This document shows, one piece after another, positions 10,343-55,586 of a stretch of 64,000 nt of DNA (positions are counted from its first letter, which is position 1; the number at the start of each line of letters is the position of its first letter). Under the pieces are notes generated by a model. The model did no database searches and was not told where the DNA came from. It saw only the letters and a list, made by a program, of their open reading frames with translations. The position numbers were made by a program, and so were the translations under genes. This stretch comes from Clostridia bacterium (GTDB lineage: Bacteria; Bacillota; Clostridia; Christensenellales; UBA1242), in assembly GCA_017501645.1 (NCBI GenBank), contig JAFVWN010000025.1:438-64437 (forward strand). The letters run 5' to 3'.

Positions 10343-10363
10343 AATAAAAACAAGCTGTATAAG

Positions 10364-10860: not shown

Positions 10861-10873
10861 ATATACAAGTGGA

Positions 10874-41100: not shown

Positions 41101-44100
41101 AATAAAGTTGCTGTAACTCTTAACAGTATGTTTAGAGCTCCAAGCAGTGCAACTGCAATAGCAACTAACCCTACAGTTGGAACAACAGGTGGTTCTGTAG
41201 AATCAACAATGTTCACTGACCAAACTGTTCTATCTACAGCAAAGACAACTGTATCTCATGGTAAGACTGGTTATATCTTATATGGCACAGCTCCTACTAT
41301 TACAACAACTCCTGCTGACAACTACGCTCACGCAGGTAACTTCACAACGAGTGGCAACTCTTATACCGCATATGCTGGTGCAGGTATTACAAGTGCAACT
41401 GCAATTTACTCTAGATTTGATGCTCAAACTTATACAGTAAATGTTAAGGTTTACACTAGTGCAGTAACAACTGGCGGTGCAGGTACTGCAACTGAAAGTA
41501 CTACAGGTGGTACAGTAAGTCCAGTGACTAAGAACTTCTACATCTTTGGTGGTGCAAATGTTCTTGGCTCATTCACTACTACACCTAAGACTGCTAATGG
41601 TTATGTATTTGATGGTTGGTATAATTCAACAACATTCAATTCAGCTAATAAGATAACAACTTTTGCTGGAACTGAAGCTGGTGCTACTCATACAATCTAT
41701 GCATTATTTAGACCAGACACATTATCTGTAACAGTTACAGCTCTTGCTCAAAATGCGACTGGTAAATCAACACTTTCTACATCTCTAGTAGCTGGTGGTG
41801 GTACAGTAACAGGTTCAAGTACATCATATGCTTACGGACAATCTGTAACAGTAACTGCTCAAGCTAATACTGGTTATGTATTCAAGGGTTGGTATAGTGA
41901 TAGCACTTGTGCAACATTAAAATCTAATGATGCATCATACACATTCACATTGACAGCTACAACAAATCTATATGCTAAATTCGTAACAGCACAATATACA
42001 ATCACAACTGTTGTTCGTGGTGAAAATGCTTCAAGCCCAACAGCTTTAAGCGGAACTAAGAGCAATGGTGTTGGTGGTTCTATCACTGGTGCTGGAACAT
42101 ACTATATCGGTACAGGTTCTGCGTTCGAGGTAACTCTTGGTGCAACTCCTGATTCTGGATATAAGTTCATTAACTGGTACAGCAACGAAGATTGTAGTAA
42201 TACAACTTCAAATGTAATTACTTCTACAACTGCTGGTGCTTCTATTACAGTATACGGTTACTTCACAACAGGTACTTATACAGTAACATTTGACCCACAA
42301 GGTGGTTCTGTAACTCCAACAACTATGACTCTTTATAGACATACTGGAACAGTTGCAGTTCCAACAGCTACAAGAAGTGCTTACACATTTGCTGGTTGGT
42401 TCACTCAAACTGGCGGTGCTGGTGACCAAGTTACAAATGCTGTTGTTTCTGGTTATACAGATACAACATTCTACGCTCATTGGTATGCAAATATCAGTGT
42501 GACTGTAAACGGAATTAATAGAACTCCTGAATCAATGCACGGTTCAACAGTTACAACTCAAACATTAACTGCAGGTAACAACACTGCATCTGGTAATACA
42601 AATACTCTCAAGAGTATTACAGCTAAGACTGTAACAGGTTACACATTTGTAGGTTGGTACAGGTCAACAACAATTTCTTCTGCTAACTTATTAGGAAGCA
42701 ATGCTACTCTTAATATTACTAGCACAGGAAGCTTGACATACTACGCATACTACACACCAAATGCAACAACAGTGTCTATGAAAGTTTATTATCTCAATAA
42801 CACTGTATACACACAAGGTGTTACTGGTGGTAATGCAACAGTTAAGATTGGTTCAACAACTGTTACACCTTCTGGTTCAGATGGTGCATACACATTCACA
42901 ACTTACTATAATGGTGCTTATGTGATTACTGCAGCTGCTAACGCTAACTATGAGGCATATGGCTTCAACACTAATGCTACAGCTACACCAACTACTGCTA
43001 GCACAGTTGCTTCAAGCTATACATTAACTCAAAACGGTGCAGCTACTGCAAATAATGTACAAGTTCTATTTAGAGGTAAACAAATTACTGTTTCATTCAA
43101 TGCAAACGGTAAGACTGGCGTAACAATGCCAAGCAATGTAACTGTAAGATACGGTACTACTGCTACTGCTACTCTAAGCTTCAACGCTTATGCAGTAACT
43201 AACTATCAACATCTTGGATTTAACAAATCTTCATCTGCAACAACTGCATCAATTGCAAGAAGTGCTGTTACATCTAATGCTACAGTTTCATTCTTAGTAA
43301 ATACAGACAATGTTTCAATTTCTGGAACAAACGGTACTGTATATGCTGTATGGTCACAAGCTTATGTTTGGGCTGTTGCTAAGAACAGTTCTGGTACAGA
43401 ACTTGCTCTTGACTCATTTGTTCGTGGATACAATACTGTTGAAGCTGCTATCACAGCTATTAATGGTAACTCATCTGCTGCAAGTGGTATTGTTACAGTT
43501 GTTAAGAGTGTTGGTATGACAACTGCTGTTACAATTTCTAAACCAATTGACTTAACAGCAACTAATGCATCTAACACAATTACTGTTTCATCAACAGCTA
43601 ACTTCGTTGTTAACGCAACTCTCAATGTTTACGGCGTAACAATTGCTGGTACTACAACTGCTACTAACGGTTTATTTGATGTAAATGCCGCTACACTTAC
43701 ATTCGGTAAGTCTGGCACAACTACTACACTTTCTGGTGTAACTGCTACTAATATCTTCTTTGCAGACGCATCTACAAGTAAGGTAAATATTACAACAGCT
43801 ACAATCACAAGTTGTAAGACTGGTGCTAACGGTACTTATGGTTCAATTATTAACTTAACTAGTGGTGCAACTGGTACTATGACAAATACAACAATCTCTG
43901 GACATAACGCTGTAGGTGTTACAATGTTTAACATCAACGCAAGTACACTCACAGTTAGTGGTGGTACAATTGGTAGCACAACAAGTGCGAACACAGCATC
44001 AGGTTCAAGCTTTGAAGCTATCTTCTACAACACTAACGGTACATTAACTATTAGCAACTCAACAACTATCATCAGTAATGATTATAGAGTTGACTACGCT

Positions 44101-44145
44101 ACTGGCGACAATGCTACAAATGATGTAGATGCTGAGATTTCTTAA
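11119..44145 (+). CDS. Giant (~11,000 aa) repeat-built surface/adhesin-like protein: signal/anchor, BspA-type LRR, B-repeat and MucBP-like modules, divergent B-repeat array, beta-helix-like C-terminus
   Basis: The frame is uninterrupted from 11086 to TAA at 44143-44145. The ATG at 11086 has no SD. The ATG at 11119 is preceded by AAAGGTGG (11104-11111, 7-nt spacer). My manual count gives about 100 modules with the G-[YH]-x-[FL]-x-G-W signature and at least 16 modules ending (L/V/I)-Y-Y-x-R. A promoter lies upstream and a clean terminator downstream. Confidence 0.95.
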   Translation: MDNSKSIDPATKKKGMKKSAKVTLLVLSIVFFLAAIVTPIAIFAAPKDDDHYSEKTVGDFVLRYDTTEGYYDIVRYIGDSNDVTIPSRIDGKPVRYVLADAFNAEKRASNKNIESVTIEEGISQIGASAFKGCANIKELILPESMTTIGSKAFEGSGIEKLTVGDASTLVLLEDSLDGATELKVLSILKASNSLKSGSLSNISGTITDVELSTGVVVGDGAFEGLNNIKTLSVYNYSNLSVDVNAFVNSNITTLNIYWAEDNLTEAFMDKFQGLTKLTTVNLDSKIIKIMPEALAKFGSLSSLTMGNGTEIDISSLPAGIPAEDFEIFMIPADEADANNLTLNITHDSGISTYDVLSQDFLNKFEYNKITTVNLSPKFTGIGTAAFESYSLLNKIVFGENSNVIRIQDGAFGAPESITELKVYGPSDPENNLFKAFNYESSAYHTRHSYNDNIDLAAYYIVLNYGLGAENKPDAGSVSQENMQPRLVPIGELVLNYLPKDSASDRIARNWTLTGWQLEDGTKVEDQLMSVDFAKNAQGVRTVYAIWLPGEQTKYHIEYRTQNLDADGTGVTNDYTIINEGPIEMWGTTNALVEVNNTFTPKTIPGFTLDLTVDGTVSSGNISADESFAIKLYYVRDSYEVSFDKNDALNSVTEATLDFTGIDNVDGKVKVYYQGKYPQLPTASRPGYDFDGWYMSSTSETKITAGTNFEGNAPVTLVAKWTGKQVSYTKEIYYQNLNGEGYSLDSSSSASALVDTIVSITVLDNITGFVYNASVDGTLQEARVDGDGSTVLRVYYDRIIYTIRYNLNKGEGSTDPVVDPSSSSNNKAIRYGVKYSFPIVTREGYTLTGWQTLGGTFVDANTTVLAGELDTNDGQETTLYQTLYAIWAPITYDITFNGNDNTSGNTNTIEDVKFDQKVVIPTNGFAKQGNHFVEWNTNANGEGDAFTIGQEVSNLTATQDDIIELFAIWAPNTYTVKFDANNSSAIGEMDDLPMTYGEKKNLPSVGFRVTGYTFSGWNANKTGDGLSYVDEQEIENLTYENNITVTLYAMWTVNTYTIVFNGNGTDTTTDGKEMKPIASIPYAGEGSEVTLTENTFVRTGYTFNGWNLATDGTLASYADKQTVSALTTENNATVTLYAQWTVITYTVTLDNGLNDGTDTEVVYIPYNNVAIENPFVNEGYALVGWAETLNGEIIANIANWLVEKTEADEELKLYAIWEANAETPYSVEYYLQDVDGSYNLVYPTTATGSKNDLSAQTGSLVTVTDADARNFFTIPEGYVFDEDNVNNNNTNVRISGHGDTVIKLYYKRATYTVNFDLNKADGTTGSILPTSVENITVTYGLPYVVNGVFAALTRTGYEFIGWATEEDKTVAVNASTDVYNKTTNSTLYAIWKAGKTTYTVEHWTENVDDNGFTLLEGNTETITTADTDAIVSAQEKVMTGFVYASGNASEVVSGQNSADEALVLKLYYTRTTIDIIIKVEGEEIVKEEVKFGQVVEIEDLVAEEPTKDGYTFTGWVDSNGDLVTNVTAGTEDIEINATFEENEYDFIIVPNFSVASTFKRVYSFVDGKKKAKYTQTLNLANAAAGLERTGYTFLGFAYTSNAVEADYKVTDDNFSAVPVETLVKNAPGARPPYPATSINLFAVWQINSYTLTYQHETQTVGGEEVEFNSVVTLKDEKTFTKTGWAYTQWEDQDGNLYNIYKDGELNTFVMPAKDLVLTPVWIANTYKVVYNSNPFTVTLNGEPVARNPINSVEDATFTYDSEATLATNNYVLTGYKFAGWNTQADGKGSSYQAGAKLAASVVNNYYINGLEDGTLNLYATWTAKEYTLYVNANYAGASTAQKQVTLKYDQEYTLNNNNEEISLSRTGHTLIGWSATEGSTSVDTGLGIGDVISNKATGEEDSISFTIYAVWETISGIKYTTEYYKQNLNGEYELDSSATTEGAGVFGATANAVIKTFNGFTYNEGYAEELISASIPANDYELTLKVYYTRNTYTVKFDLNEGDKTGSITTGAVADIEDVMYQAEIGTLATPEKNGYTFLGWFTDAENGELITAQTTYTWYNETTKTLYAHWEAKEDTTFIVYHRLQNLNDNEYPALASLDGTEFKEILNGTTDTDIVLDDIKNEYTGFTYSFSIPENLGAIVGNGDTTIQLHYTRNSYTLTLNKETGINSVSATVTPTATLEGNVYTIKYDANVVLNAVASQGYTVDAFYKETATHANEFKMGAENIVLTAKAIANKYEIVFDANTGTTTATELAFEKAYNETITTLASTAFAKVGYNFIGYSLTASATTASYNAGAVVEVSALAIADNKAEGTTDKQTITLYAIYTPIQFTIVYDGNGHTGGTAMSNSVFTYDQDAILKLNTYKRTGYTFEGWATSPKGAKAYEDGANVKNIVNTAQEKTLYAVWQAKTYTVTFDLNYDGSTALTKEFTVDGTNNTLEDIQVRTGYTFKGWAKTRTVVTADELMSANANVGNTLSADGEDITVYAIWEAKTFTVSYNGNGGEGVTASSNFTYDQINALAENGYTRIGYNFAGWNTKANGEGETYVAGFESRNTFFNNGEGVTLYAMWNESDGITYKVEHYQESITEDGSLAFSLAATDNLSGKTGDSVTATPRNYTGFTYQASYEEGQFETIASGTILADGSLVLKLYYTRNIYTISFDNGIAEDAVLTGTIGATPDDITIKYGAKYGTLAGIDRQGYTFAGWYTADDAKIAETDTYELTTNSTLYAKFTANDVSYVINFYKQNIDLTYPQTPTQVIDTLTAKADSTIEVGTQGIVWEGYTTPNAQEILVRADGTTVVTFNYAIISYSLTLNTQEGVDTFIAESSNGGIEELSAGVYKVYYGANITLTATALKGYTLGNLMNGEETQSATFTMGANDMVVTATATANTYTIVYNAGTGSVDTAIESATVKYNTNVTLSNGNGFSKEGFKFAGWAFTSGATSNNFASGAHITGADLISKAYNAGVQGVTSTYADTTITLYAVWSYNTFTLTYTYDGQDISEEYTFDSKQTLKGDNTFSKTGYHYEEWVDVDNDSQKYAVGGEFTVPARNVTLTPVWIKNQYTIVYNGNGADSGEVANSTHTYDEAKNLNKNEFKKTGYHFGGWSYNGETYQDEESVMNLTSVKDDTITITIIWAPNTDTEYKIYHVVENVSNAPVTFEPETGFILIANSTETHKGVTDGEVNALNVSVYFTDGVYNGGLVGFTYSESLTTSKPGKKTGTIAPDGSLELVLYYTRNIYTMSFVTPADITGGSMASVRYMYEAVVSLPDCGFEKTGYSFKNWVIDGTSYNVGDAYTITADVSVSAVFDADTYTVTLDKQSGVGGDTTISATYDAVIEDLSSVPTRAGYTFQGYFTGTSGSGVKYFDKDGKAVESTWKFVDDTTLYASWTQNDYDITFDKEGGEDGDDTVGVTYGDALKPINPPRRDGYTFDGYYYNKTEDGVTSSTKYFNADGSVTDKDADGDLTDEVWDIPGDATLDAKWIANNYTVNYDANGGNGTTNPTNHTYDTASSLAMNSFTYTGYTFQNWNTQRDGLGTTYTEGSSVSTLVKDPDGSITLFAIWKANTYTITLALLDADIANGAVLGTTTTTATFDKVPESISTVATKVGYTLAGYYDESGRTCYIDGTGKGVVAWDIARDTTLYARFTQALVDYVVNYYKMDLYGNYSATPTESIVLKAEADSTQTIKPAPTKEDYTGFIKPADKADVKINADGSTVVNFQYARSQYTLTLNKQTGISSFTASSADSTITGDKVYYGATVVLNVEAVAGYTFAGYVVGNSSIEQPDTFTMTEDLTVSAKATPNNYTLRVHPNFPDAGVEYIDVELTYEVNFTFENNADVDYYFEYAGYTLQGWSTTATGSVEYEINETVKNLTTLKDGVVNIYAIWKANTNTQYVVEHYLETLTAGTFATPVDDETRFTYTGTTDTTATATPNDYAGFAYKTGYELEVLSANINGDGSTVLKLYYLRESYTVSFDTNLGGTTGTLNSAEPESIDVLYGATYYDKLPTDLDRNGYTLDGWYYVDAATLKSAIPTNGVKVNETTTLDTADDLVLFAIWDAEETTVYKINHYTQGTDGIFNFKETTTHAGMTDTTATVVPLTISGFSYDETVEGTVKDLTIHGDGTTVLKLYYVRQEYKVTRDGSDLGTYKFGTEVSKTLPTRTGYTFKDFTIVLSTEGLTLTINYDKTAGTFTFNMPASNVTLTSNYDENTYFVVFNGNGATDGSMDNQEFKYTESKALTRNAYERSGYTFGGWALTADGEQKYTDGATVQSLASGQGDEFEIFATWIPKSFNITFHGNGGTSSGASSYSDDYTFASNETLAVNTFGKTGYTFQGWDTAEAGTEVKYADRDVVSKITTYQATMSLYAVWKANQYTVVYSGNGATSGEMPNSVFTYDTPANLSLNKYVKTGYTFQGWSLTEGGSVAYSNGGTVSTLAPSGIVTLHAVWAADDDIKYTINYYLQDMNASGTALVDTYTFFDSETLLDGVANGTINAREKSIHLALSSSVYVSLVDGLIYDSAKTEAINKFETTNLDPSGAQVFEIYFTRQSYTVTYAGNQNTTGSMAVETYYYEAEFQVKANGFVRNGYTFSTWNDGTNDIAVGSNYKVETANIIFTAKWNVNKYKVIYNQGNGTGAIESQEFAFNDSAVQLSNGTGMVRPGYTFIGWSIDNNLTVELAHTTTHTGENIVTTAGVAVPYAPTDITLYAVFEANKNTQYKVEHYQQNVSDLSQYTLIEKDTQTLTGTTDTLTNATAKTYTGFEAKAFAQANISGETTTVIKIYYDRLSYNLTITMSAKGIKSITASGSRTEETATSGTFSVLYGSSVTVTAVLSKGYIFNGWYEGETKVSTDENLVYTIEEMGASDVTLMAKATPITFAIILDANNGTPIDGVSANTSMTYDAESTLVQAFERDGYSFEGYSLTKTATTGEFKVGTVSVAQVNTLFDNYNETDEATTIYAIWDANTYTLTYDAGDGAEGDLETTVDFDQTIAIHTAVSKTGYTFKGWSKDGSTVIATITGSMTGEALVKAYGISAPYAETEVIALVAVWEANKDTKYTIKYYQQNTALSTDLKDYVEVTADRKVLSGETDTAIGTVTPGIDYNGFVTPAAKDGGTIAADGSTVIEFYYARRTLTVTFDSNANSVTPQPTIAGSMENKTYTYGTTAKLENNGYTATYIDGNSNTVTYSFVGWATTNGGSVTYANLADIDKIVVDLSATNENATALTITLYAVWSQDSASYTIEIMKPAIDANGKLITDKYDVVEKVMTDAEPNQTITINPADYVNDIDTLGFTYDESKTGVANLTKMVAADGSTKFTIYTTRNHYTATFYANNGTEATVEHIIYFGANIRNTIAIRDDKVFTYTGHYFVEWAVGVDGSGEYVNISSMDGSTETVKTDLNVEAVWAQNAYKIVFSANLGTNGANYDASKAEINTTYEESIDAPGANFYVRTGHKQANWIYGPSQTPFTIETAGTSIPVATIVDNLGMATANQTTQTITIYANWVANEYTVTYNINTLSGTDKTESSTFSYDPSNNATVVLADANTFEYANYTLDGWKLTDTDGSYNYRVGATVKANEIIAAAGMTDTPGTINLFAHWTPNEYTITVETLLNTQANTVCGTANITAINGSAIAGVKSQLIVYSSYNYATKAETVTKFTITYTTSTGYSFVGLYANEVTEGNKIADATSINMYGANTTIYAVYDALEPTLTLSATDASVNASEWAGIKGVADHGFTLSGKTASKTVTFDTSYGTLPSPTRDGYSFAGWFNGETEIKTDDTVKIVDDTTFVAKWVANTYNIVFKAGTGATGNDVTVSGRYDGTITTPGNVFAKTGYTLVGYKHNDAGTEATYGVGTTASVTEIANTAHKTTASAEAIEIILFAHYTANTYTVKFDKNNGTIVYKGSYTETYEATYDKPIVLNVMIDSVVRAGYDFAGFKVSTTGATLQLTEALQNVATEQDAVVTLTAQWARHSNYTLTLESNNTVGGSVVVSGTDPESATATKLAFEQEFTAIARPNAGYHFVAWYKGSVAEANKITGANATYTATMPALATNDGTYKLIADFEKDTYTINIVNKVFINNNEATDKLSSFSVTVNNNKPIFEENITFSVVSKADGYKLTGYYTDVACTANKIADVDGAYIVAAQASNNATINVYARFDAITYTVEFAVLEGQGSITGTTSFTATYDVEYSAGDYITGATRTGYAFAGWKVDANTTITDGKIKNLTTAEETVTLTAVWTANKYTVNFNSNKPTTATNTVTGTMNAQEFEYEVEEAINTNTFKLTGWTFDSWNTNANGSGTKFADGAKLSTLITSGSTTLYAQWTVNKYNVTLYNNHSATDSTVFKTIEQTFDSKYVLEDTTREGYTFNGWFTSRTGGTQVTEETMVSTADDHDLFAQWTVNSYNLTVHIYTQVGSNTAEKETTGGSVKAATTVNFGTTTQMTATASTGYSFAGWYVGDGVTTAFTDVNTTNPIETAPMVTAGLVYTALFTANTYTIEFAENGGTFTFATGATNTYTATYSVSVNVSDIITDATRAGYDFANFLGSDGKTYTLESVLLNLASAQGAKVTLTAGWDIHSNYTLGVAVDPTGSGTAEITATTGTIAGNKISATGVTYNSDVTVKATANAGYHFVGWYDGDTQKSTSATYNFKMPALSANNGAYNLVARFEKNGYKLSVNAKTYIDGAESSTYVGGTVSANKTDVVLGDVVTLTATEKAGYTFTGWFTDPACSKAIDGNTYTIPASGDEGSTVSLYAKFVANTYTVTYHANNGTDATSTSTFVYNKAGSLTANTYTLQGYYFTGWSTVEDGTKVYNDKHAISADAPLAEEGNVDLYAVWEVNKYSIYFGTNDATPTEGSYTDNIVTDNGNDQYKKGHHITSWNALEDGSGKTFELSTQVSVKEIADAVGMSNGNASKQEIILYPVFVANTYTLIYNSNYPTDPETKTNATKTGATIIYTANANTNTTLETAVGAGFAYEGSSLDSWKISGTEATYPVGSAQSVLAIIEAANVVDTNEAEINLDAIWSYIDYTLTVTNVYVGAQNATTLAAAVTGDVGGTSTGSGTYRNIDTATLTATPKTGYTFIGWFNTANDEKLSAGTGANNSFEYDMPAANVAIYAKFQINTYTLTINTYTKYGTETDKASVEGGTISSGLVTLTRNENVYTADIYYGKTVNLTANTVSGYTFAGWFKASTATGEGDTTSPITTDAMVVGGLTYSALFTANEYDVKIYTYVQVGGNAAVESAIGGTATGAGKVILTKTTQMTASANDGFTFAGWYKGKGVATEYADATPATTEAMTTAGQEYTALFTANLYTVTINSAVGGTGIIGTTGTLKEKSYYIVTSALAPQSVTVTATASEGYTFDGWNDESGEVADETKATYTFTMPAKSITLTPKFTINQYALTINVMTQFGSQYTTETVGGTVTGAGNYDYGAVASMVATPNSNYTFVGWYKGTTVDKNSSAYSTSAEASAEAMGINGLTYTALFKATDYTATIYSYLTTGNGDPALTAMDVTVTNAFATVNKSTATWTTEIPLTKSITLKAAENAKYSFAGWYTGNGVSGSPITTELTYTLAQASTNTNEQTITAHFTANQFDVVLALGTGVKSLSYKLGVNGEQQVTSQTTISVAYGETLKITAVNEAGYHITSFTANKTISGLGNNGATITYNLTEGATITANAERDVYDILINTYTDGVSASAGGTISATVAGKNATITSGKISGVVFEQEVGLTATANAGYHFVGFFTDADLTDSRDVPFNMPALANNGDTYTIYASFETNTYNLTVESYTNGVASTDGGNVTGNKSNVVEGTSVTVSATPSVGYHFVGWYDTTDFANASAKSTSTSYTFTLDNKLTNNEHNKTYTLYANFQVNKYIISVNANTGALAQGTTATSAELAYTDNYTTLSTTSFTKTGYSLVGFATAAAGDVVYDCAKAYSVATMATNAKSNAHSSSTQTITIYCVWSSNSYNFNVVVYTKVGNSTTVNNDGGSVTAPSTIKFDGTVTMSASANSGYKFVGFYTDNTFAESSKLAGNTSAKCTSVDGLTQYALFEAEMNTLTVYLQPQVADLGVTLSTGNASYTFAYDSANYKYTVSIPTSVSLNISASAIVDYKFDAWYTGNGVVSGNKVDGATREGLTTTKMTAGGLTYTLSYVSKTYNLVYNLDYSVVDNKSEGTLTDALEPITLSSKMNNTAVTYTLNGDAFKTALTAKGLALAGWKVANTGASADYSANQSGLSASSLAEKAGVRGTDGATINLYAVLESKTVDIAVDSNNTTAGTAKITYVEGGAVSLNSVNTEIYTIDTATNTATANTFKALATVNSGYHFAEWSSSDTTLEINKAIEVSGNSYTASFTINSYDISFSVVTYKNATETDATNVGGTITPNTSGSYNYKAEIELVATQNTGYTFMGWFTNANCTTSAEVTTTASGNTHTGTYTVPVAGDNGADISLFAKFVANTYEITFSAVDATSWTNTTGFDAVTGGYKKTYYYNSALDGTLPTPTRTGHAFDGWFTSATGGTKVNGGDIVKVTTNTTYYAQWTVTNFNVTLIAYTKNYAGEITQSTDGCQTLTGGQGYDFGTSVTVSAVAKAGYSFGGWFEGTDFTGTPVEDATSYTFVMPAKDVTINALFTINQYNVTVKARYQGATDATTLANLADDTTGIAYKTLTGAGKYFFGTAVTLVASANANYSFVGWYTDEACTTELNLNGSADATSTSYAFNMTSVDQTIYAKFVINRVEVTVGAYYKVATNNVLGNAQSGEDMGTARINKVLTSSDVTNTATATNVASGYILYGTSTAITLIAKTVSGVPYVGTWHTDTTFATTTDATVSSSKVSAYALFIPAAYTLSAEVYGLSATDAGTLSTTLAENVGGTVTGAGSTYHGQARTLTATPTTGYVFEGWYTNPTCTSAVTTGVTENTVVVTVTSATTIYAKFVQAQYTLTLAPRFQSPNASNGLNALETGTTGGTVAIVDNEYITFDNETYKYTVYHGQEFVISATPITGYRFDGWFSNDACTTSITVTGNKVTLTANREIYAKFTATQYTLTLNAMYQSAKNATELNALAKDDTGNIVSVSGAGNYYFDQVITLTADAEADGYTFNGWFTSADCIGTPVCATEEYEYTTTKADVTLWAKYTQTQYTVTVVEKVSGGTNVNGLTAPYVTIDTIDTASATVYYGKTRELKAVYNSTQFVFGGWFADEACANSLGTGTTYSPTITSNTTIYAKFTQAQYTLTAKSVYTSGDMISSNTNATEGVIGGTVAGAGTVYYGLTLTLTATPATGYSFIGWYNGGTTIAPSETGTNALSTEDSYTVTMTADKTILGYFKANNYTITVVTMTQEENNGGITQTTNGWAGSSTSTTFVTSATYRYKLSNVKLGKVSGTTWNENEYSFVGYYTDADCTAQFSNDINASIEITENKTYYALFSRASFTVTAVEKYKQSKNVNTLGDLKTGNTAGTVSATTTTVYYGSDTTLTATANDGYTFKGWYSNSNCSTRITTNTSYTVSNVTSNTEVFAYFVETPYTVELVGMYQSAKDAQNLNALAKDTSAVAGTVSTTTTAYNDNDGVSGFFAGYNISIVAANKTGYHFVAWYDNEACTSNVANEATSVYTVQTSGNKLYAKFVQNQYTVTATARFQKATAVTTLADLATGTTGGSLAGSPALNNASGVYTVGIYHGFSVTLTATANAGYSFIGWYNNSNCDEGEVTTNPRTVTATANVELYAKFVHKSYTITGTAAYKDSATINTLKDAVVGTTGGTISGAGAVYHSQSRSLTANANSGYTFVGWYSNSTCSTAITSTGIYSVNDNMLTISGMTDNVTAYALFVKTPYTISAAARFDDGSSITSTNGLTGSFTGGTATINTTAYSGYGLTGYFPGYTISATAVGVKDASNNEVFRFTGWYDTSACDGTALSTSASYTNYSKKPSNETIYALFTRVSYTLTISAKYQAATNATTYASLASGETGGTVSGGGSALYGATQSATASAETGYTFVGWYNASGVELATTATYTPTMTADLSIYAKFVINKVAVTLNSMFRAPSSATAIATNPTVGTTGGSVESTMFTDQTVLSTAKTTVSHGKTGYILYGTAPTITTTPADNYAHAGNFTTSGNSYTAYAGAGITSATAIYSRFDAQTYTVNVKVYTSAVTTGGAGTATESTTGGTVSPVTKNFYIFGGANVLGSFTTTPKTANGYVFDGWYNSTTFNSANKITTFAGTEAGATHTIYALFRPDTLSVTVTALAQNATGKSTLSTSLVAGGGTVTGSSTSYAYGQSVTVTAQANTGYVFKGWYSDSTCATLKSNDASYTFTLTATTNLYAKFVTAQYTITTVVRGENASSPTALSGTKSNGVGGSITGAGTYYIGTGSAFEVTLGATPDSGYKFINWYSNEDCSNTTSNVITSTTAGASITVYGYFTTGTYTVTFDPQGGSVTPTTMTLYRHTGTVAVPTATRSAYTFAGWFTQTGGAGDQVTNAVVSGYTDTTFYAHWYANISVTVNGINRTPESMHGSTVTTQTLTAGNNTASGNTNTLKSITAKTVTGYTFVGWYRSTTISSANLLGSNATLNITSTGSLTYYAYYTPNATTVSMKVYYLNNTVYTQGVTGGNATVKIGSTTVTPSGSDGAYTFTTYYNGAYVITAAANANYEAYGFNTNATATPTTASTVASSYTLTQNGAATANNVQVLFRGKQITVSFNANGKTGVTMPSNVTVRYGTTATATLSFNAYAVTNYQHLGFNKSSSATTASIARSAVTSNATVSFLVNTDNVSISGTNGTVYAVWSQAYVWAVAKNSSGTELALDSFVRGYNTVEAAITAINGNSSAASGIVTVVKSVGMTTAVTISKPIDLTATNASNTITVSSTANFVVNATLNVYGVTIAGTTTATNGLFDVNAATLTFGKSGTTTTLSGVTATNIFFADASTSKVNITTATITSCKTGANGTYGSIINLTSGATGTMTNTTISGHNAVGVTMFNINASTLTVSGGTIGSTTSANTASGSSFEAIFYNTNGTLTISNSTTIISNDYRVDYATGDNATNDVDAEIS
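11182..11253 (+). other. Hydrophobic signal/anchor segment of the giant protein
   Basis: KKKGMKKSAK is followed by VTLLVLSIVFFLAAIVTPIAIFAA and then PKDDD. I-F-A|A is a possible signal-peptidase site. Confidence 0.7.
11290..12440 (+). repeat. BspA-type leucine-rich-repeat region of the giant protein
   Basis: IESVTIEEGISQIGASAFKGCANIKELILPESMTTIGSKAFEGS and further degenerate repeats of the same type. Boundaries are approximate. Confidence 0.7.
12640..28998 (+). repeat. Mixed array of canonical B-repeat modules (~70-80 aa, ...GYTFxGW...LYAxW..N.YTV.F) and MucBP-like modules (~90 aa, Y.VEHY.Q...LKLYYTR..Y), with occasional divergent B-repeats
   Basis: Read from the translation: e.g. RTGYTFNGWNLATDG...LYAQWTVITYTVTLD and YKVEHYQESITEDG...LKLYYTRNIYTISFD. 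Boundaries are approximate. Confidence 0.75.
28999..43350 (+). repeat. Array dominated by divergent B-repeat modules (~90-95 aa, Y.LT(V/I)......GG.V.G.G.Y..G..V.L.A....GY.F.GWY), with a few canonical B-repeats interspersed up to ~36660
   Basis: e.g. YTLTLESNNTVGGSVVVSG...ARPNAGYHFVAWYKG...LIADFEKDTY. The stretch 36670-42270 is an uninterrupted run of about 19 such modules. Confidence 0.7.
43360..44142 (+). other. C-terminal beta-helix-like / PMP-like cap of the giant protein
   Basis: Short T/S/G/N-rich repeats with alternating hydrophobics: TLTFGKSGTTTTLSGVTATNIFFADAS, TMTNTTISGHNAVGVTMFNINASTLTVSGGTIG. The protein ends ...DYATGDNATNDVDAEIS with no hydrophobic tail. Confidence 0.5.
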
Positions 44146-44180
44146 TCTTGTAAAACTTGCAAAATTTGTTTAGTAATAAA

Positions 44181-44209
44181 AGAGACGGTCAAAAGCCGTC
44201 TCTTTTTTG
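44181..44209 (+). terminator. Intrinsic terminator of the giant gene
   Basis: AGAGACGG (44181-44188), loop TCAAAAG, CCGTCTCT (44196-44203), then T-run. It lies 36 nt after the stop. Confidence 0.85.
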
Positions 44210-44376
44210 TTGTAAAATTTAAGAATTTTGTTTTAAATTATAAAAACGATTGGGGAAAATTCGTTGCAAGGGTGGGGAAACAAATAAAACATAAAAAACA
44301 GTTTATTAGTTTAGTTGGTTTTTTGTTGAGAGAACTTCACTTTTTGGGTTGCAAAGGTTAAAAATCAAAAGAATAC

Positions 44377-44405
44377 TTTACATTTTATTGTGTGGGTGCT
44401 AAAAT
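44377..44405 (+). promoter_or_regulatory. Sigma-A-type promoter of leuS (extended -10)
   Basis: TTTACA (44377-44382), 17-nt spacer, TGcTAAAAT (44397-44405). Confidence 0.55.
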
Positions 44406-44456
44406 AAAAGAAAATAGTTGATAAATCTATTAATAAATACAAAGAGGCTGAAATTT

Positions 44457-46871
44457 ATGCGTGATTATAAACATATAGAAATTGAAAATAAATGGAAAAA
44501 ATATTGGCAAGACAATCAAACTTTTAAAACTGATGTTTGGGATTTTTCTAAGCCAAAATTTTATGCTCTAGATATGTTCCCATATCCATCTGGTTCAAAC
44601 CTTCATGCAGGGCACCCAGTTGGATATACAGCAACTGATATTGTTGCGAGAATGAAAAGAATGCAAGGTTATAATGTTTTGCACCCAATGGGATTTGACT
44701 CTTTTGGTCTTCCAGCTGAGCAATATGCAGTTGATACAGGAAACCACCCAGACGGATTTACTCAAAAGAATGTAAAAATCATTTCTCGTCAATTGTTTGA
44801 CCTTGGTTTCTCTTATGATTGGGAGAGGGAATTTTGCACAAGTGACCCAAGTTATTATAAGTGGACTCAATGGATTTTCAAAAAGCTTTATAATGATGGG
44901 CTTGCTAGATGTGTAGAAATGCCTGTAAACTGGTGTGAAGGTCTTGGTTGCGTTCTTGCAAATGATGAAATTATTGACGGTAAAAGTGAAAGAGGTGGAT
45001 TCCCTGTTGTTAGAAAGAATATGAAACAGTGGATAATTGATACTCCTAAGTTTGCAGATAGACTTCTTGAAGGGTTAAATGAAATTGATTGGCCAGAGTC
45101 TACAAAAACAATGCAAAGAAACTGGATTGGTAAGTCTACTGGTGTTGAAGTTGACTTTGATTTGGTTGGTGGTGGCTCTTTCTCTATTTATACAACTTGT
45201 ATTGAAACAATTTATGGTATTACATTTATGGTTATGGCGCCAGAAAGCAAGCTTGTAGACGAATTAAAACCAAGGATTAAAAACTGGCAAGAAGTTGAAG
45301 AATATCGTAAAGAAACAGCAAAATTAAGCGAATTTGACCGTACCGAGCTTAACAAAGGCAAGACTGGTGTTAAACTTGATGGAGTTTTTGCTATAAACCC
45401 AGTAAACGGGAGAGAAGTTCCTGTATTTATTGGCGATTTTGTACTTGCAAGTTATGGTACTGGTGCAGTTATGGCTGTTCCGTCTCACGATCAAAGAGAT
45501 TTTGAGTATGCAATTGTTCATAACATTCCAATGATTCAAGTTATTGATGGTGCAGATGTTAGTAAGAAAGCATTTGAAAAGCAAGATTACTTAGGTAAAG
45601 GTTGTAAACTTCTTAACAGTGAAGAGTTTACAGGTCTTACTGTTGAAGAGGCAAAAGAAGCAATAACTGAAAAACTTGTAAAAATGGGAAGGGGCAGAAA
45701 GAAAAACAACTATAAACTTCGTGAGTGGATTTTTGCTCGTCAAAGATATTGGGGTGAACCTATTCCTGTTGTTCATTTTGAAGATGGTACAACAAAAGCC
45801 CTTGAAGATAAAGATTTACCACTTATTCTTCCTGTTCTTGACGATTATAAACCTGCAAAAGACGGAAACAGTCCTCTTGCGAAAGCTACTGACTGGGTAA
45901 ATGTTGTTGTTGATGGCAAAAAGGCAAAAAGAGAAACAAGCACAATGCCGGGAAGTGCTGGTTCAAGCTGGTATTTCTTAAGATATATTGACCCTAAGAA
46001 TGACAATGAGTTCGCAAATCAAGAACTTTTGAAACACTGGATGCCTGTAGACCTTTATGTTGGTGGTCCAGAGCACGCAGTTGGACACCTATTATATTCT
46101 CGTGTATGGAACAATTATTTGTTTGATAAAGGACTTGTTCCAGTAAAAGAACCATTTAAAAAACTTGTACACCAAGGTATGTTGCTTGGTGCTAACGGTA
46201 TAAAGATGGGTAAGAGATATCCTAAGTATGTTGTTGGAACTGACGAAACTGTTCAAAAGTTCGGTGCAGATAGCTTAAGACTTTATGAAATGTTTATGAG
46301 TCCTCTTGAAGAGGCTAAACTTTGGAGTGATAGCGGTATTGTTGCTGCAAGAAAGTTCCTTGATAGAATTTATCGTATCTATCAAGAAAAGAATATTACT
46401 GAAGAAAATTCAGGAGAACTTAAGACTATTTATAACCAAACAGTTAAAAAGGTTACTGAAGATTATGAAACTCTAAACTTTAACACTGCAATTTCTCAAA
46501 TGATGATATTCATTAATGCTGTTGCTAAAGTTAATGATTTCCCAAGAGAATATGCTGAAGGTTTTGTGAAATTATTAAACCCAATTTGTCCATTTATTAC
46601 AGAAGAGTTGTGGGAAGAGCTTGGTCATAATAATACTGTTTCTTATGAATCTTGGCCAACTTATGACGCAAAAGCTTTAGTTCAAGATGAAATTGATTTA
46701 CCTGTTCAAATTCTTGGAAAAATGAGAGGCACAATCAAGGTTAATGTAAAAGCTTCACAGGATGAAGTTGTAAAATTGGCTATTGAAAATGCTGAAATAG
46801 CTAAATTTGTGACAGGAGATATCAAAAAAGTCATTTATGTTCCTGGAAGAATTTTAAACTTAATAGTATAA
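44457..46871 (+). CDS. leuS: Leucine--tRNA ligase
   Basis: MRDYKHIEIENKWKKYW..., HIGH-region LHAGHPVGY, KMSKS-region KMGKR, and a CP1 editing domain. The ORF track starts at TTG 44418. The ATG at 44457 has SD AAGAGG 9 nt upstream. Confidence 0.95.
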   Translation: MRDYKHIEIENKWKKYWQDNQTFKTDVWDFSKPKFYALDMFPYPSGSNLHAGHPVGYTATDIVARMKRMQGYNVLHPMGFDSFGLPAEQYAVDTGNHPDGFTQKNVKIISRQLFDLGFSYDWEREFCTSDPSYYKWTQWIFKKLYNDGLARCVEMPVNWCEGLGCVLANDEIIDGKSERGGFPVVRKNMKQWIIDTPKFADRLLEGLNEIDWPESTKTMQRNWIGKSTGVEVDFDLVGGGSFSIYTTCIETIYGITFMVMAPESKLVDELKPRIKNWQEVEEYRKETAKLSEFDRTELNKGKTGVKLDGVFAINPVNGREVPVFIGDFVLASYGTGAVMAVPSHDQRDFEYAIVHNIPMIQVIDGADVSKKAFEKQDYLGKGCKLLNSEEFTGLTVEEAKEAITEKLVKMGRGRKKNNYKLREWIFARQRYWGEPIPVVHFEDGTTKALEDKDLPLILPVLDDYKPAKDGNSPLAKATDWVNVVVDGKKAKRETSTMPGSAGSSWYFLRYIDPKNDNEFANQELLKHWMPVDLYVGGPEHAVGHLLYSRVWNNYLFDKGLVPVKEPFKKLVHQGMLLGANGIKMGKRYPKYVVGTDETVQKFGADSLRLYEMFMSPLEEAKLWSDSGIVAARKFLDRIYRIYQEKNITEENSGELKTIYNQTVKKVTEDYETLNFNTAISQMMIFINAVAKVNDFPREYAEGFVKLLNPICPFITEELWEELGHNNTVSYESWPTYDAKALVQDEIDLPVQILGKMRGTIKVNVKASQDEVVKLAIENAEIAKFVTGDIKKVIYVPGRILNLIV

Positions 46872-46889: not shown

Positions 46890-47495
46890 ATGCAAAAAGC
46901 AAAAAAATTATTATTTAGTGCAAGTATTTTAGAGTTAATGCTTGCTGTAGTGCTCTTAATTTTTGACGGTTTCTATTCTGCAAACTGGTTATCTTCGCTA
47001 GAAGGTGACTTGACGGGAAGAATAGTAATCACTTGTGTACTATTTGTTTTGTCGGTTGCCTTCGCTGTTGATGGCGTTCTTGCTTTAAGGTATTCAAGAG
47101 CGAGTGATGAAACATTAAAAAAATGTCAAAAGGCAAGAGTTCTAATGGGGATTGCGTTTGTTGTGATCGCTATTACTGCATACATTTTATTGTGTGTAAT
47201 CGTAACAAAGAAGCAAGGTGCAGAAGTCTTTGTATTGGTTTTTAGTTTTTTTGTGTCTATAGCAGTGGCTGTTTTGAACATAAAAAGTGCTGTTGATATG
47301 AATAAACCAGAAGAACCAAAACAAATTGTAACTTCGCAAGTTGTTAAACCACAAGTTGTGTCCCCAAAACGAAATGATATTGACGGACTCATCCAAAGGC
47401 TTGATTCTCTTGCTGTTTTAAGAGAAAGAGGGCTTATAACAGAGGAAGAGTTTGAAAAGTTTAGAACGGAAGTTTTAAACAGCTATAAGGATTAA
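46890..47495 (+). CDS. Membrane protein with C-terminal SHOCT domain
   Basis: About four hydrophobic segments, then IDGLIQRLDSLAVLRERGLITEEEFEKFRTEVL (SHOCT-type short C-terminal domain). Confidence 0.65.
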   Translation: MQKAKKLLFSASILELMLAVVLLIFDGFYSANWLSSLEGDLTGRIVITCVLFVLSVAFAVDGVLALRYSRASDETLKKCQKARVLMGIAFVVIAITAYILLCVIVTKKQGAEVFVLVFSFFVSIAVAVLNIKSAVDMNKPEEPKQIVTSQVVKPQVVSPKRNDIDGLIQRLDSLAVLRERGLITEEEFEKFRTEVLNSYKD

Positions 47496-47518: not shown

Positions 47519-48307
47519 ATGGAGAGAACCAAAAATAAATTTTATGTTGCAACATCTGTTTTAGAATTTGTATTTGCATCAATTTGTGTATTGTATTCAT
47601 TAATTTTAATTATAGGAATGGCAACAGGAACTCTTTCTGAAACAATAAAAACTGATTTACTAGCAGAGTATGGTAGTGCTACCCCAGAAATGCTTGAAGC
47701 TTTACAGATGGTAAACTCAATGATAATAACAATGATTGTGTTTATGGTTGGTTCATCTGCTGTTATGTATGTTTCTGGTGTATACTTCTTAAAATATTCA
47801 AATCTTACAGACCAAGAAGCTGATGAAAAGTGGGGAAAATGTCTAGGTTGGACTATTACTGCATATTTCTTTGGTGGCCTTTTACTTGGTGGTCTTGCAA
47901 CTGCAGGTTTGTGTGCTGTTCAAGCGAAACAAAGAGAAAGAGTTGTTGGTGGAACTGCTAATTGGACCACATCAACAGGAAAAACTGTTAATATGAGTAC
48001 TGGAGTTGTTGAACAAGAAGATGTTTTAGCACCTGAAAATCTTGAGAAGATAAGAGTTAGGCTTGAGAAATTAAAAGCACTAAAAGATACGGGAGCTATT
48101 AGTGAGGAAGAGTTTGAATCATTAAGAGCAAAGACAATGGCTGGTCTTACTCCTAAAAAAGAAGAGCCGAAGGTTAATCCAGAAGATGAAAAACTTGCAA
48201 GAATGACTGAAAGGCTTAATAAGTTAACAGCTCTTAAAGAGTCTGGTGCAATAAGCGAAGAAGAGTATGCTTCACTAAGAGAAAAAGTTATTAACGAAAC
48301 AAAATAA
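47519..48307 (+). CDS. Membrane protein with two C-terminal SHOCT domains
   Basis: Hydrophobic N-terminal half, then LEKLKALKDTGAISEEEFESLRAK and LNKLTALKESGAISEEEYASLREK. Confidence 0.65.
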   Translation: MERTKNKFYVATSVLEFVFASICVLYSLILIIGMATGTLSETIKTDLLAEYGSATPEMLEALQMVNSMIITMIVFMVGSSAVMYVSGVYFLKYSNLTDQEADEKWGKCLGWTITAYFFGGLLLGGLATAGLCAVQAKQRERVVGGTANWTTSTGKTVNMSTGVVEQEDVLAPENLEKIRVRLEKLKALKDTGAISEEEFESLRAKTMAGLTPKKEEPKVNPEDEKLARMTERLNKLTALKESGAISEEEYASLREKVINETK

Positions 48308-54104: not shown

Positions 54105-55586
54105 GTGGCGACAAAAAAGGATATAACTCAAAAAATATTGGATTTATTTAATAAAAATGCGGAGGTTGTGGTTCGTAAATTTTTTGTTTGTGAAAAACAT
54201 ATCAACCTCTTTTTTATTGATTGTCTAATAAATAAAGAACTTTTTGCAAGCGGTATAATTGGAGGAATAAACAAGCTTGAAGAAAGCAAAGGTTCAAAAG
54301 AAAAAATAATAGATAAACTTGAAAAAGAATTAATTGCTGTTTCAACAATAAAAAGAATAAAAGAAGAAAAAGAGATACAAGAAGAAATCTTTAACGGTGG
54401 GGTAATTATTCAAATTGAAGGGGAAGAATGGTTGCTTGCCGTTAACACTGCAGGGTATTCAAAAAGGGCAATAACAGAGCCACCAACAGCGAGCGTTGTT
54501 CGTGGACCACGAGAGGGTTTTATTGAGGATATAGAAACAAATATCAGTCTTATTAGGCGAAGATTAAAAACACCAAGCCTTGCAATAAAAAGGCTTACGG
54601 TGGGGGAGAGAACAAACACAAGCATTGCTCTTGTTTATCTTGATGATATAGTAAATCATAAAGTGGTGAAAGAGCTTGAAAAAAATATAAAAAGCATTGA
54701 TATTGATGGTGTTATTGATTCTTATTATCTTGAAGAGTTATTGACAAAAAGTTCAAGTAAATTCTTCAAAAAGTTAGGAAATACAGAAAAACCAGATGTT
54801 TTAACAGCAAAAATTTTAGAGGGGCGAGTTGGAATAATTGTTGACGGTTCGCCAATAGTTCTTTCTGCACCATTTATTTTGTTTGAAGATATGCAGTCGC
54901 CCGGGGATTACTATGATATTCCGCAAAGAACAAGTTTTGTAAGATTTGTGCGTTTTGTGGGACTTATTCTTGCAATACTTTTGCCGGGAATGTATGTTGC
55001 TCTTCAAAGTTATCATTATAGGGTGTTGCCAATCAACTTTTTAATAAGTTTGCTTAGTAGTATAGAAGGGATAAGTTTTCCGCCTATACTTGAAATACTT
55101 TTTGTGTTGTTTTTGTTTGAAATACTTAATGAAGCAAGTGTTCGTATGCCAAAACAACTTGGTATGGCACTTTCCATTATTGGTGCTTTAGTTCTTGGAG
55201 ATACTGCTGTTCAAGCAGGAATTATAACTCCGCCAAGTATAGTAGTTGTTGCAATTTCAGGAATAACCTTATACATTATTCCAAACGAGTCAAGCGAAGC
55301 GAGTCTTTTAAGAACACTGTTTACAATAGTTGGTGGAGTCGCTGGGTTTTATGGGATATTTTTAGGCTTTATTATTCTTGCAACTCATCTTGTGTCGATT
55401 CAGTCTTATTTTGCCCCATATATGGCACCATATGCTCCAAGTGTGGATATTGATAAGAAAGATGGATTTACTAAAAAGCCTCTTTCATATATGTCTACTC
55501 GTCCGCAAAGTTTAAGGATAAAAAACATAATTCGTCAGCGGTCAAAAACGAAAAGTCAAGGAGGAAATGCAGATGGAGTTAACTAA
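54105..55586 (+). CDS. Spore germination protein, GerA (A-subunit) family
   Basis: TEPPTASVVRGPREGFIEDIETNISLIRRRL followed by a multi-pass C-terminal membrane domain. GTG start. Confidence 0.85.
   Translation: MATKKDITQKILDLFNKNAEVVVRKFFVCEKHINLFFIDCLINKELFASGIIGGINKLEESKGSKEKIIDKLEKELIAVSTIKRIKEEKEIQEEIFNGGVIIQIEGEEWLLAVNTAGYSKRAITEPPTASVVRGPREGFIEDIETNISLIRRRLKTPSLAIKRLTVGERTNTSIALVYLDDIVNHKVVKELEKNIKSIDIDGVIDSYYLEELLTKSSSKFFKKLGNTEKPDVLTAKILEGRVGIIVDGSPIVLSAPFILFEDMQSPGDYYDIPQRTSFVRFVRFVGLILAILLPGMYVALQSYHYRVLPINFLISLLSSIEGISFPPILEILFVLFLFEILNEASVRMPKQLGMALSIIGALVLGDTAVQAGIITPPSIVVVAISGITLYIIPNESSEASLLRTLFTIVGGVAGFYGIFLGFIILATHLVSIQSYFAPYMAPYAPSVDIDKKDGFTKKPLSYMSTRPQSLRIKNIIRQRSKTKSQGGNADGVN

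Follow-up and report, generated by a model that had tools for sequence, protein, structure and literature searches.

The giant protein encoded in the window (the whole 64,000-nucleotide stretch of DNA analysed here) ends in a domain that, judged by comparison with its relatives, is genuine and conserved and not a product of drift. This domain, the cap, constitutes by sequence a very small unannotated family, absent from both Pfam and NCBIfam, and is modelled as a non-enzymatic-looking parallel beta-helix of the pectate-lyase/tailspike (right-handed) fold class. We favour, at a probability of roughly one half, an arrangement in which the N-terminal anchor would stay uncleaved and hold the protein, the beta-helix being its free distal tip.

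The bacterium that encodes it is a spore-forming member of the gut Clostridia, uncultured and related to Christensenellales/Candidatus Onthoplasma. The giant ORF occupies positions 11086 to 44145 of the + strand (11,019 aa as listed). The ATG at 11119-11121 (M12 of the ORF) is probably the true start codon, because a Shine-Dalgarno sequence (AAGGTGG, 11105-11111, + strand) lies upstream of it with a 7-nt spacer and because both this site and the MD... protein start are conserved in an ortholog fragment (L082/P0005). The same AAGGTGGA and ATG GAC arrangement is present in that fragment, and its protein alignment begins at the same Met. From this start the product would be about 11,008 aa and 1.18 MDa. 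A promoter-like site (TTGACT-17-TAATAT with TG; 10832-10860, + strand) is supported by its consensus alone, such sites being as numerous as shuffling predicts; two hairpins (10361-10386 and 10770-10795) lie upstream of it. Beginning 36 nt after the stop, a G+C-rich hairpin, AGAGACGG-TCAAAAG-CCGTCTCT, followed by the T-run TTTTT, was read directly from the sequence (44181-44203, + strand); it is terminator-like and suggests a monocistronic unit. No Rfam family matched anywhere in the window. Stop-free, collinear orthologs in two related loci, L081 (48% identity over about 3,600 aa) and L023 (36% over about 3,400 aa), identify the ORF as a real gene; given these orthologs and the absence of DNA tandem repeats from the ORF, an assembly artefact was rejected.

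Most of the protein is repetitive. A BspA-type leucine-rich-repeat (LRR) region of about 580 aa (aa 57-634; 11254-12987, + strand) was matched by Pfam LRR_5 in three stretches (E 2.4e-29), and 147 LRR_5 relatives were found. The stalk follows (aa 635-10746; 12988-43323, + strand), its extent defined by a repeat HMM trained on the giant protein itself, with 98 Flg_new/Flg_new_2 units and about 16 repeat-sized gaps. The repeats are of the Listeria-Bacteroides, InlB B-repeat type, with a median spacing of 93 aa and about 100-115 diverged units in all, and are individually orthologous between species. At cut-offs of E<=0.1-1, Pfam returned LRR_5, a weak LRR_8, Flg_new, Flg_new_2, and a sub-threshold STIV_turret_1st match (E 0.14, aa 204-265) across aa 1-10000 and 10321-11019, the intervening aa 10001-10320 being covered by the local repeat HMM; NCBIfam returned List_Bact_rpt and sub-threshold LRR adhesin matches and nothing else. 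With a single type of stalk domain repeated in a long array, a separate domain at its end, and an export signal, the protein falls, by its predicted domains, among fibrillar adhesins, with adhesion itself putative.

A preliminary description of this DNA had reported a change of character near the C-terminus, with a beta-helix-like module from position 43360 onward. The change is borne out: the repeat HMM stops at aa 10746, and T/S/N/G/A content rises from 50% in the stalk to 63% beyond it. The module is likewise real but starts about 12 residues earlier, at 43324. As delimited here, the cap comprises aa 10747-11019 (43324-44142, + strand; 273 aa, 27.5 kDa, pI 4.55), the only C-terminal block unmatched by the repeat HMM. 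It contains TISGHNAVGVTMFNINASTLTVSGGTIG at aa 10936-10963 (nt 43891-43974), and the protein C-terminus reads ...DYRVDYATGDNATNDVDAEIS, with an acidic end, ...NDVDAEIS.

An exhaustive HMMER search of 1.84 billion representative proteins yielded three genuine relatives of the cap (E 5.8e-23, 4e-16, and 5e-4); a fourth listed match, P0003, was discarded as a repetitive, unrelated protein. Two further relatives were located in DNA collections by tblastn, in L081 (9e-82 / 7e-85) and L023 (1.5e-52). The cap follows Flg_new repeats in the five relatives with upstream sequence, and all six family members end within 15 residues of the protein C-terminus. Scanned with the cap HMM, neither the window nor 1.37 Mb of related genomes showed a further copy, and GTDB representative genomes yielded no match to the cap. 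Word-index protein searches with the cap alone or with the cap alignment also returned no relatives, a result that is not evidence of absence because the exhaustive HMMER search did find them; T/S/G-rich words probably swamped the index. The cap had no sequence match in Pfam, NCBIfam, or the PDB, none of the six members had one in Pfam, and the cap belongs to no described family (Beta_helix PF13229, Pectate_lyase_3, PbH1, and similar). A profile search of the PDB gave nothing credible, only one spurious WD-like match (E 0.04).

The alignment of the six members has 15 invariant columns, in which the only charged residue is one Arg; no Asp, Glu, or Lys is invariant. Charged residues and His account for 22 of the 273 positions, and the cap is acidic (pI 4.4-4.6). 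Identity to L081 is 66% in the cap as compared with 37-58% in stalk blocks of equal length, a difference that we count as functional constraint on the cap; relative to L023, cap conservation is no higher than that of the stalk.

Modelled with AlphaFold2 from a four-sequence alignment, the cap folds with confidence (pLDDT 87.9, pTM 0.90) into an all-beta structure with an N-terminal helix: a beta-strand, an alpha-helix (model residues 30-39), and then about 24 short strands in repeating groups forming about eight turns of parallel beta-helix, which is the layout of a three-strand-per-turn solenoid capped by a helix at its N-terminal end. Among the top 50 PDB matches listed by Foldseek nearly all, and among the named BFVD matches most, are right-handed beta-helix proteins, and it is from these fold classes that handedness was inferred. 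The best TMq values were 0.51 in the PDB and 0.70 in BFVD, the best E-values 1.6e-2 and 2.3e-3, and identities 5-17%; no match to the model reached E<=0.001. A single-sequence model was poor (pLDDT 50), and its non-significant Foldseek matches served as a trend only. The beta-helix-like character proposed for this end of the protein is thus upheld by a confident model. Similarity to the GGAIY/GGTITGNY repeats in the gene at 62886, which had also been proposed, fared less well, being marginal by hhalign (probability 50%, E 1.6e-4, 106 columns) and by the cap HMM (E 0.048, although the best non-self match among 2,574 ORFs), while a tblastn search of the window with the cap as query (E <= 10) returned nothing in that gene. 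The gene at 62886 approaches the Chlamydia PMP repeat PF02415 (E 0.053) with a score of 14.3 bits, below the cut-off of 20.6; PF02415 has no match to the cap at E<=10.

We searched for any known means of attachment. A regex scan of the whole protein for LPXT[GASN], NPXT[GN], LAXTG, SPXTG, [LI]PXTG, and NPQTN gave zero matches; Gram_pos_anchor (PF00746) had no Pfam match in the scanned protein; and a C-terminal hydrophobic stretch with a basic tail is absent, since a Kyte-Doolittle scan of the whole protein (19-aa window, threshold 1.6) finds aa 33-56 alone. Neither Pfam (aa 1-10000 and 10321-11019, and the cap alone) nor NCBIfam matched SLH, CWB2, GW, choline-binding, LysM, or SH3b modules. 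No ORF with the sortase motif TLxTC occurs in the 64-kb window or in the closest related loci (about 20 kb each). Within the 1.37 Mb of related loci, sortases and LPXTG proteins occur only in distant Bacilli, Lachnospiraceae, and Acutalibacteraceae loci, which are uninformative for the host lineage. C-terminal signals of the T9SS, T1SS, or PEP-CTERM type were rejected on the basis of no matching model, no hydrophobic tail, and the monoderm context. The earlier statement that the protein carries no recognisable wall-sorting or wall-binding module therefore holds across motif, Pfam, NCBIfam, and hydropathy searches, and the check by HMM that had been proposed for the C-terminus turned up no known sorting or anchoring domain.

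Attention thus turns to the N-terminus, where the preliminary description had placed a signal or anchor and the protein's single hydrophobic segment; the segment lies at exactly the coordinates given, 11182-11253, and the signal or anchor is supported, the net +5 tail and the hydrophobic helix after it being features of an export signal. A basic tail (aa 12-32; 11119-11181, + strand), with 7 Lys and 2 Asp for a net charge of +5, is predicted to be cytoplasmic. It precedes the sole hydrophobic segment, VTLLVLSIVFFLAAIVTPIAIFAA (aa 33-56; 11182-11253, + strand), a 24-residue helix flanked by acidic sequence on its C side, which may serve as a signal-anchor or may form the h/c-region of a signal peptide, in which case cleavage could fall at IFA|A. 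A lipoprotein was rejected, as Cys is absent from aa 1-70 and thus no signal peptidase II lipobox exists; YSIRK and KxYKxGKxW signals were rejected, neither being present in the N-terminus.

The fragment P0005 conserves the KKG.KK.AK motif of the basic tail. Its helix has the same 24-residue length and the conserved Pro and ends PIVLFVV-NKTDNK, reading VLFVV-NK where the window protein reads AIFAA-PK, with no small residue at -1/-3. P0005 is a single N-terminal ortholog fragment, from a protein that carries the cap only putatively.

Of the two states, cleaved and uncleaved, between which the preliminary description had not chosen, the uncleaved anchor is favoured because P0005 retains the basic tail and hydrophobic helix but not the IFA|A site. 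The reconstructed arrangement would be as follows: the net +5 tail and the 24-residue helix would drive N-in/C-out insertion via Sec, and the helix, left uncleaved, would act as a type II signal-anchor. The LRR block would then lie at the membrane or within the wall, and about 110 Flg_new domains would extend as a stalk over a few hundred nanometres (the distance of "1 MDa" once suggested for the tip is a mass, not a length). The beta-helix would be the free distal tip, most plausibly binding glycans or surfaces, by a logic that may parallel that of RTX-type giant adhesins, in which the N-terminus provides retention, an extender follows, and a solenoid ends the protein at its C-terminus. In a neighbouring LRR_5 protein (4637-7336), too, the N-terminus carries a long hydrophobic helix; the residues after it are KDKNN, AXA is absent, and no second hydrophobic segment occurs. 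Rarity (three genuine relatives among 1.84 billion proteins), the lack of other copies in the window and in 1.37 Mb of related genomes, acidity, and the single invariant charged residue all speak against the cap as a generic wall anchor.

Several observations run counter to the uncleaved anchor. The window protein fits a Sec/SPI pattern, with its net +5 tail, Pro at -6, and an I-F-A|A sequence obeying the (-3,-1) rule, and its hydrophobic segment is no longer than signal peptides that, in related LRR/Flg_new proteins, are clearly cleavable (as in P0069, ...LPLSAVTAFA|ED). An uncleaved helix would also leave the presumed ligand-binding LRR, whose N-cap begins about 11 residues past it, close to the membrane and beneath the wall. 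In the complete proteins retrieved with LRR_5 followed by Flg_new (P0065, P0069, P0079, P0082, and P0091) a C-terminal TM helix provides the membrane anchor and the LRR is the distal head; in the neighbour at 4637-7336 the order is anchor, Flg_new, LRR. On that pattern the cap occupies the position expected of an anchor. Finally, the evidence from P0005 is that of one fragment, cap conservation relative to L023 is no better than that of the stalk, and the structure model derives from four sequences.

An internalin-B-like organisation is the strongest competitor, though we consider it only a one-in-several prospect. The Sec signal would be cleaved at IFA|A, the LRR would be the distal adhesive head, and the cap would bind a wall glycopolymer or surface partner non-covalently, as a new wall-binding module. 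Along with the cleavage rule and the Pro at -6, it draws on the LRR_5-then-Flg_new proteins, which have cleavable signals and C-terminal anchors and in which Flg_new always lies between anchor and LRR; on the right-handed beta-helix, a fold typical of polysaccharide-binding and -processing proteins; and on the cap being the most conserved block relative to L081. It must accommodate P0005, which lacks a usable cleavage site, and a cap that is acidic, with very few charged residues, extremely rare, and apparently confined to one protein family, whereas real wall-binding modules (SLH, CWB2, GW, LysM) occur on many proteins per genome; nor did we find a precedent for a beta-helix wall anchor. Slightly less probable still is the general proposal that the cap is an unrecognised module for non-covalent attachment to the cell surface, taking the place of a sortase signal or TM anchor on the megadalton fibres of a Christensenellales-like lineage; the LRR would then be a distal head several hundred nm out.

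It is doubtful, but conceivable, that the signal is cleaved and the protein has no specific anchor, being a released or entangled matrix or biofilm fibre, or one held by LRR-partner binding, with the cap as a folding or end-capping domain. No known anchor type was found here, and such proteins have parallels: 1,785 of 3,542 predicted fibrillar adhesin-like proteins have no known anchor, 20% of those having a TM helix (PMC8286594), and Oscillospiraceae giant repeat proteins are reported to be extracellular and anchorless (bioRxiv 10.1101/2023.11.21.568195). Against this stand the conservation in P0005 of a basic tail and helix with no cleavage site, the cap's identity to L081, which exceeds that of the stalk and suggests a role beyond that of a passive terminus, and the presumed cost of shedding a 1.18 MDa protein. 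Very improbable, and rejected for its absence of conserved acidic residues, is a cap acting as an enzyme at the fibre end (a polysaccharide lyase or hydrolase of the pectate-lyase superfamily): lyases, glycosidases, and tailspike depolymerases predominate among its Foldseek neighbours, but at the weak E-values and identities given above, with no sequence match in any of the three databases, so few charged or His residues, and one Arg as the sole invariant charge.

Bacteria related to the Christensenellales are abundant in the gut, associated with health, and poorly represented in culture; to our knowledge, little has been established about how they contact mucus, host cells, and other microbes. 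For a cell of this kind, making a fibre of about 1.2 MDa is a considerable expense, and the end that is attached determines whether the LRR or the beta-helix is presented outward. Known anchors are missing from about half of the predicted fibrillar adhesin-like proteins (PMC8286594). A solved case would help to annotate the group, and the cap family could be added to Pfam and NCBIfam. None of these findings overturns current understanding or comes as a surprise.

Among known systems, Listeria internalin B has the order LRR, B-repeat, and C-terminal GW modules, with no sortase signal. The giant protein shares this N-to-C order of LRR, Flg_new-type B-repeats, and a C-terminal module lacking a sortase signal; it differs in having BspA-type LRR_5 and not internalin-type repeats, about 110 stalk repeats as compared to one, and an acidic beta-helix, its wall binding putative, in place of basic GW/SH3-like repeats. 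RTX-type giant adhesins (LapA, MpIBP, SiiE) combine N-terminal retention, a very long single-type extender, and a C-terminal solenoid or ligand-binding distal tip. Their export is by type 1 secretion, with RTX repeats and a plug in the outer membrane, whereas the giant protein has Sec-type export in a monoderm, and Pfam found no RTX or HemolysinCabind match in it. Beta-helix adhesin domains (the L. reuteri SRRP binding region 5nxk, Ag43 4kh3/7koh, and Caldicellulosiruptor tapirin-like 4wa0), which were non-significant Foldseek matches of the low-confidence model, and Chlamydia PMP repeats also employ a right-handed beta-solenoid as a surface-binding element, without significant structural or sequence match to the cap.

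Giant proteins of 10,000-30,000 aa with Listeria-Bacteroides repeats and leucine-rich repeats, and a proposed role in adhesion, have been described from mammalian gut Clostridia (West-Roberts et al. 2023, bioRxiv 10.1101/2023.11.21.568195). The present protein is of the same kind in size, host group, and repeats, and giant LRR/Flg_new proteins in gut Clostridia are thus already reported; that paper describes neither the C-terminal module nor an anchoring logic, and the cap family alone is new. Like the fibrillar adhesins surveyed by Monzon et al. (2021, PMC8286594), among which a missing known anchor is common, the giant protein has a putative adhesive domain, a long stalk array of a single type, and surface export. 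Unlike typical Firmicutes fibrillar adhesins with a C-terminal LPXTG, its sole membrane element is N-terminal, beside the presumed adhesive LRR.

An ORF of 11,019 aa (11086-44145, + strand) in the window is a real gene. Contig L081, from a human-gut metagenome, has a gene whose product is collinear with aa 7420-11019 (48% identity); the product of its counterpart in a MAG locus, L023, is collinear with aa 7829-11018 (36% identity), and neither collinear gene contains a stop codon. The stalk repeats are orthologous one by one across species while diverged from each other, and no DNA tandem repeats were detectable in the gene. No ribosome-binding site precedes the listed start, ATG 11086, whereas ATG 11119 (M12) follows an AAGGTGG Shine-Dalgarno sequence with a 7-nt spacer. 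A matching AAGGTGGA-ATG-GAC arrangement occurs in P0005 (DNA locus L082), an ortholog fragment that covers the N-terminus and comes from a different metagenome, and its alignment to the giant protein begins exactly at M12. The true start is thus probably ATG 11119, which would shorten the listed ORF by 11 residues to about 11,008 aa (1.18 MDa).

The gene looks monocistronic, judging from terminator-like hairpins and a promoter-like site upstream and a hairpin with a T-run 36 nt downstream of the stop. The hairpins (10361-10386 and 10770-10795, the latter palindromic) lie in an unusually long, A+T-rich intergenic region of 740 bp (10343-11085) that has no Rfam match. Several AAAAGCCC-type motifs also occur there. 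Across 12000-44000 the G+C content is 0.34-0.40 within the gene versus 0.24-0.35 in the flanks, and GC skew drifts gradually along the gene from about +0.2-0.3 in the flanks to about 0 or slightly negative; both shifts presumably reflect Thr/Ala/Gly-rich coding.

A repeat HMM trained on the protein's own sequence detected 98 units plus about 16 repeat-sized gaps in the stalk (aa 635-10746), or about 110 repeats at a median spacing of 93 aa. At 3-4 nm per unit, a geometry inferred rather than computed, the stalk would measure roughly 0.35-0.45 micrometres. The only large blocks left unmatched were aa 1-634 and aa 10747-11019, which confirms the change of character described for the last ~260 aa. 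The domain itself begins at nt 43324, 36 nt upstream of the boundary first proposed. Pfam models (aa 1-10000 and 10321-11019) matched LRR_5, weakly LRR_8, Flg_new and Flg_new_2, with one unrelated sub-threshold match; NCBIfam contributed nothing beyond the List_Bact_rpt repeat and LRR adhesin matches below threshold. The preliminary description had reported no wall-sorting or wall-binding module, and this held: the whole protein contains no LPXTG-like pentapeptide, and SLH, CWB2, GW, choline-binding, LysM and Gram_pos_anchor models had no match (NCBIfam, and Pfam over the same residues). The C-terminal ending it gave, ...DYRVDYATGDNATNDVDAEIS, was confirmed by reading the ORF, and a Kyte-Doolittle scan returned the same sole hydrophobic segment (core aa 33-56, nt 11182-11253).

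The C-terminal cap (aa 10747-11019, nt 43324-44142) has no Pfam or NCBIfam match, nor do any of its relatives, and a profile search of PDB sequences gave nothing credible. Searched exhaustively with HMMER, 1.84 billion representative proteins yielded four matches, three of them genuine; P0003 was spurious and was discarded. The first, P0001, is a 165-aa fragment 52% identical to the cap. In P0002 and P0004 the cap is preceded by Flg_new repeats and ends 13-15 residues before the C-terminus. Collinearity of P0002 with the giant protein reaches about 540 aa upstream of the cap, so that the conserved terminal unit takes in the last few specialised repeats. L081, with a cap identity of about 64-67% that varies with the alignment used, and L023 (39%) bring the family to six members; the cap HMM found no further copies in the window and 1.37 Mb of related genomes.

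An AlphaFold2 model of the cap from a single sequence was poor (pLDDT 50); from four sequences it reached pLDDT 87.9 and pTM 0.90. In this second model a strand at the N-terminus is followed by an alpha-helix (model residues 30-39) and then by about 24 short strands that form repeating groups. The listed Foldseek matches in PDB and BFVD were almost all right-handed parallel beta-helix proteins, including tailspikes, PL3/PL6/PL9 lyases, a GH87 glucanase and pectin methylesterases. None was close (best E 1.6e-2 in PDB and 2.3e-3 in BFVD; TMq <=0.51 and <=0.70, respectively; identity 5-17%), and the matches thus support the beta-helix fold class originally suggested but not membership of any described family.

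The cap had also been likened to the repeats of a surface protein gene that runs off the window (62886-64000, +; signal peptide, GGAIY/GGTITGNY beta-helix repeats, then LRR_5); the C-terminus of its product, and with it the anchor, falls outside the window. Those repeats match Chlam_PMP below cut-off (E 0.053). The likeness survives in marginal matches by cap HMM (E 0.048, the best non-self match of 2,574 ORFs) and hhalign (probability 50%, E 1.6e-4, 106 columns) but not by tblastn of the cap against the window, which found nothing in that gene at E <= 10. We read the two as a common beta-helix repeat style, possibly very distantly homologous; relatedness is not demonstrated.

Which end of the protein is attached? 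We favor, at a probability of about 0.5, an N-terminal hydrophobic helix that would be left uncleaved as a membrane anchor, with the cap as distal tip at the free far end. The helix is the protein's sole membrane-interacting element, and its flanks, a tail of net charge +5 before it and an acidic stretch after it, predict an N-in/C-out orientation. P0005 keeps the basic tail (KKG.KK.AK) as well as the 24-residue helix, including the Pro within it. Another surface protein encoded in the window, a BspA-type LRR_5 protein of 899 aa (4637-7336, +), also looks N-terminally anchored: a long hydrophobic helix (aa ~9-32) is followed by KDKNN with no AXA site, and the protein has no other hydrophobic segment and no C-terminal anchor.

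A less probable alternative is that the signal is cleaved and the cap serves as a non-covalent anchor. IFA|A, preceded by Pro at -6, makes a textbook cleavage site, and relatives such as P0069 have clearly cleavable signals at least as long as this segment. Complete LRR_5-then-Flg_new proteins (P0065, P0069, P0079, P0082, P0091) are anchored by a C-terminal TM helix, and the 4637-7336 protein runs from anchor through a single Flg_new-like repeat (aa 47-100; sub-threshold in Pfam at E 8.9e-5) to LRR. Flg_new thus normally lies between anchor and LRR head, so that the giant protein's anchor would be expected at the cap end. Were the N-terminal anchor uncleaved, about 11 residues would separate the membrane from the LRR N-cap, which would then lie beneath the wall. 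Against cleavage, the helix ends PIVLFVV-NKTDNK in P0005 (PIAIFAA-PKDDD in the window protein), without any residue allowed at -1. If orthologs are assumed to share one retention mechanism, an anchor works in both proteins and cleavage in only one. The cap's rarity and its confinement to a single protein family are also unlike generic wall-binding modules. Block conservation is only a mild guide: no other 273-aa block is as well conserved against L081 as the cap (66%; others 37-58%), but against L023 the cap is average (39%; others 27-45%). Cleavage with the protein released, or held some other way, is unlikely. That the cap is an enzyme is very improbable, since charged and His residues together account for only 22 of the 273 in this acidic module (pI 4.55), and the sole charged column among 15 invariant ones in the six-member alignment is the Arg of a terminal R.VY..G motif. 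The original observation on the protein is confirmed, and the interpretation given with it is supported.

No sortase, glycosyltransferase or accessory Sec gene lies adjacent to the giant gene. Immediately downstream is leuS (44418-46871), its product at most 78-79% identical to proteins of animal and human gut MAGs labelled Candidatus Onthoplasma (Christensenellaceae per NCBI), uncultured Christensenella or Clostridia. Firmicutes commonly regulate their aminoacyl-tRNA synthetase genes through T-boxes, so it is mildly unexpected that no T-box leader or other Rfam family was found upstream of leuS (44146-44417; whole 64 kb searched at gathering thresholds). Directly after leuS are two adjacent multi-pass membrane proteins (46890-47495 and 47519-48307, +), each with a C-terminal SHOCT motif. 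In L023 the giant gene (2-9871) likewise lies directly upstream of leuS (10001-12415); none of ~78 other related loci (L001-L080) has it there, indicating a patchy distribution among close relatives. Because the window encodes GerA, GerB and GerC spore-germination proteins, SpoIID, and a VanW and G5 protein, the host is a walled, sporulating Clostridia bacterium. The GerA/spore permease/GerAC germination-receptor operon (54105-58006, +) and SpoIID homologue (3589-4539, -) mark a spore-former despite the '-plasma' naming of its relatives.

The new elements are the beta-helix cap family, small and unannotated, and a specific either/or on the topology of the giant protein that can be tested. Neither this class of protein nor the 'missing anchor' problem is new. 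Gut Clostridia proteins of 10,000-30,000 aa with Listeria-Bacteroides repeats and LRRs, the class to which the giant protein belongs, were noted by West-Roberts et al. (bioRxiv 10.1101/2023.11.21.568195), and about half of predicted fibrillar adhesin-like proteins (1,785/3,542) have no known anchor, with TM helices in only 20% of these (Monzon et al., PMC8286594).
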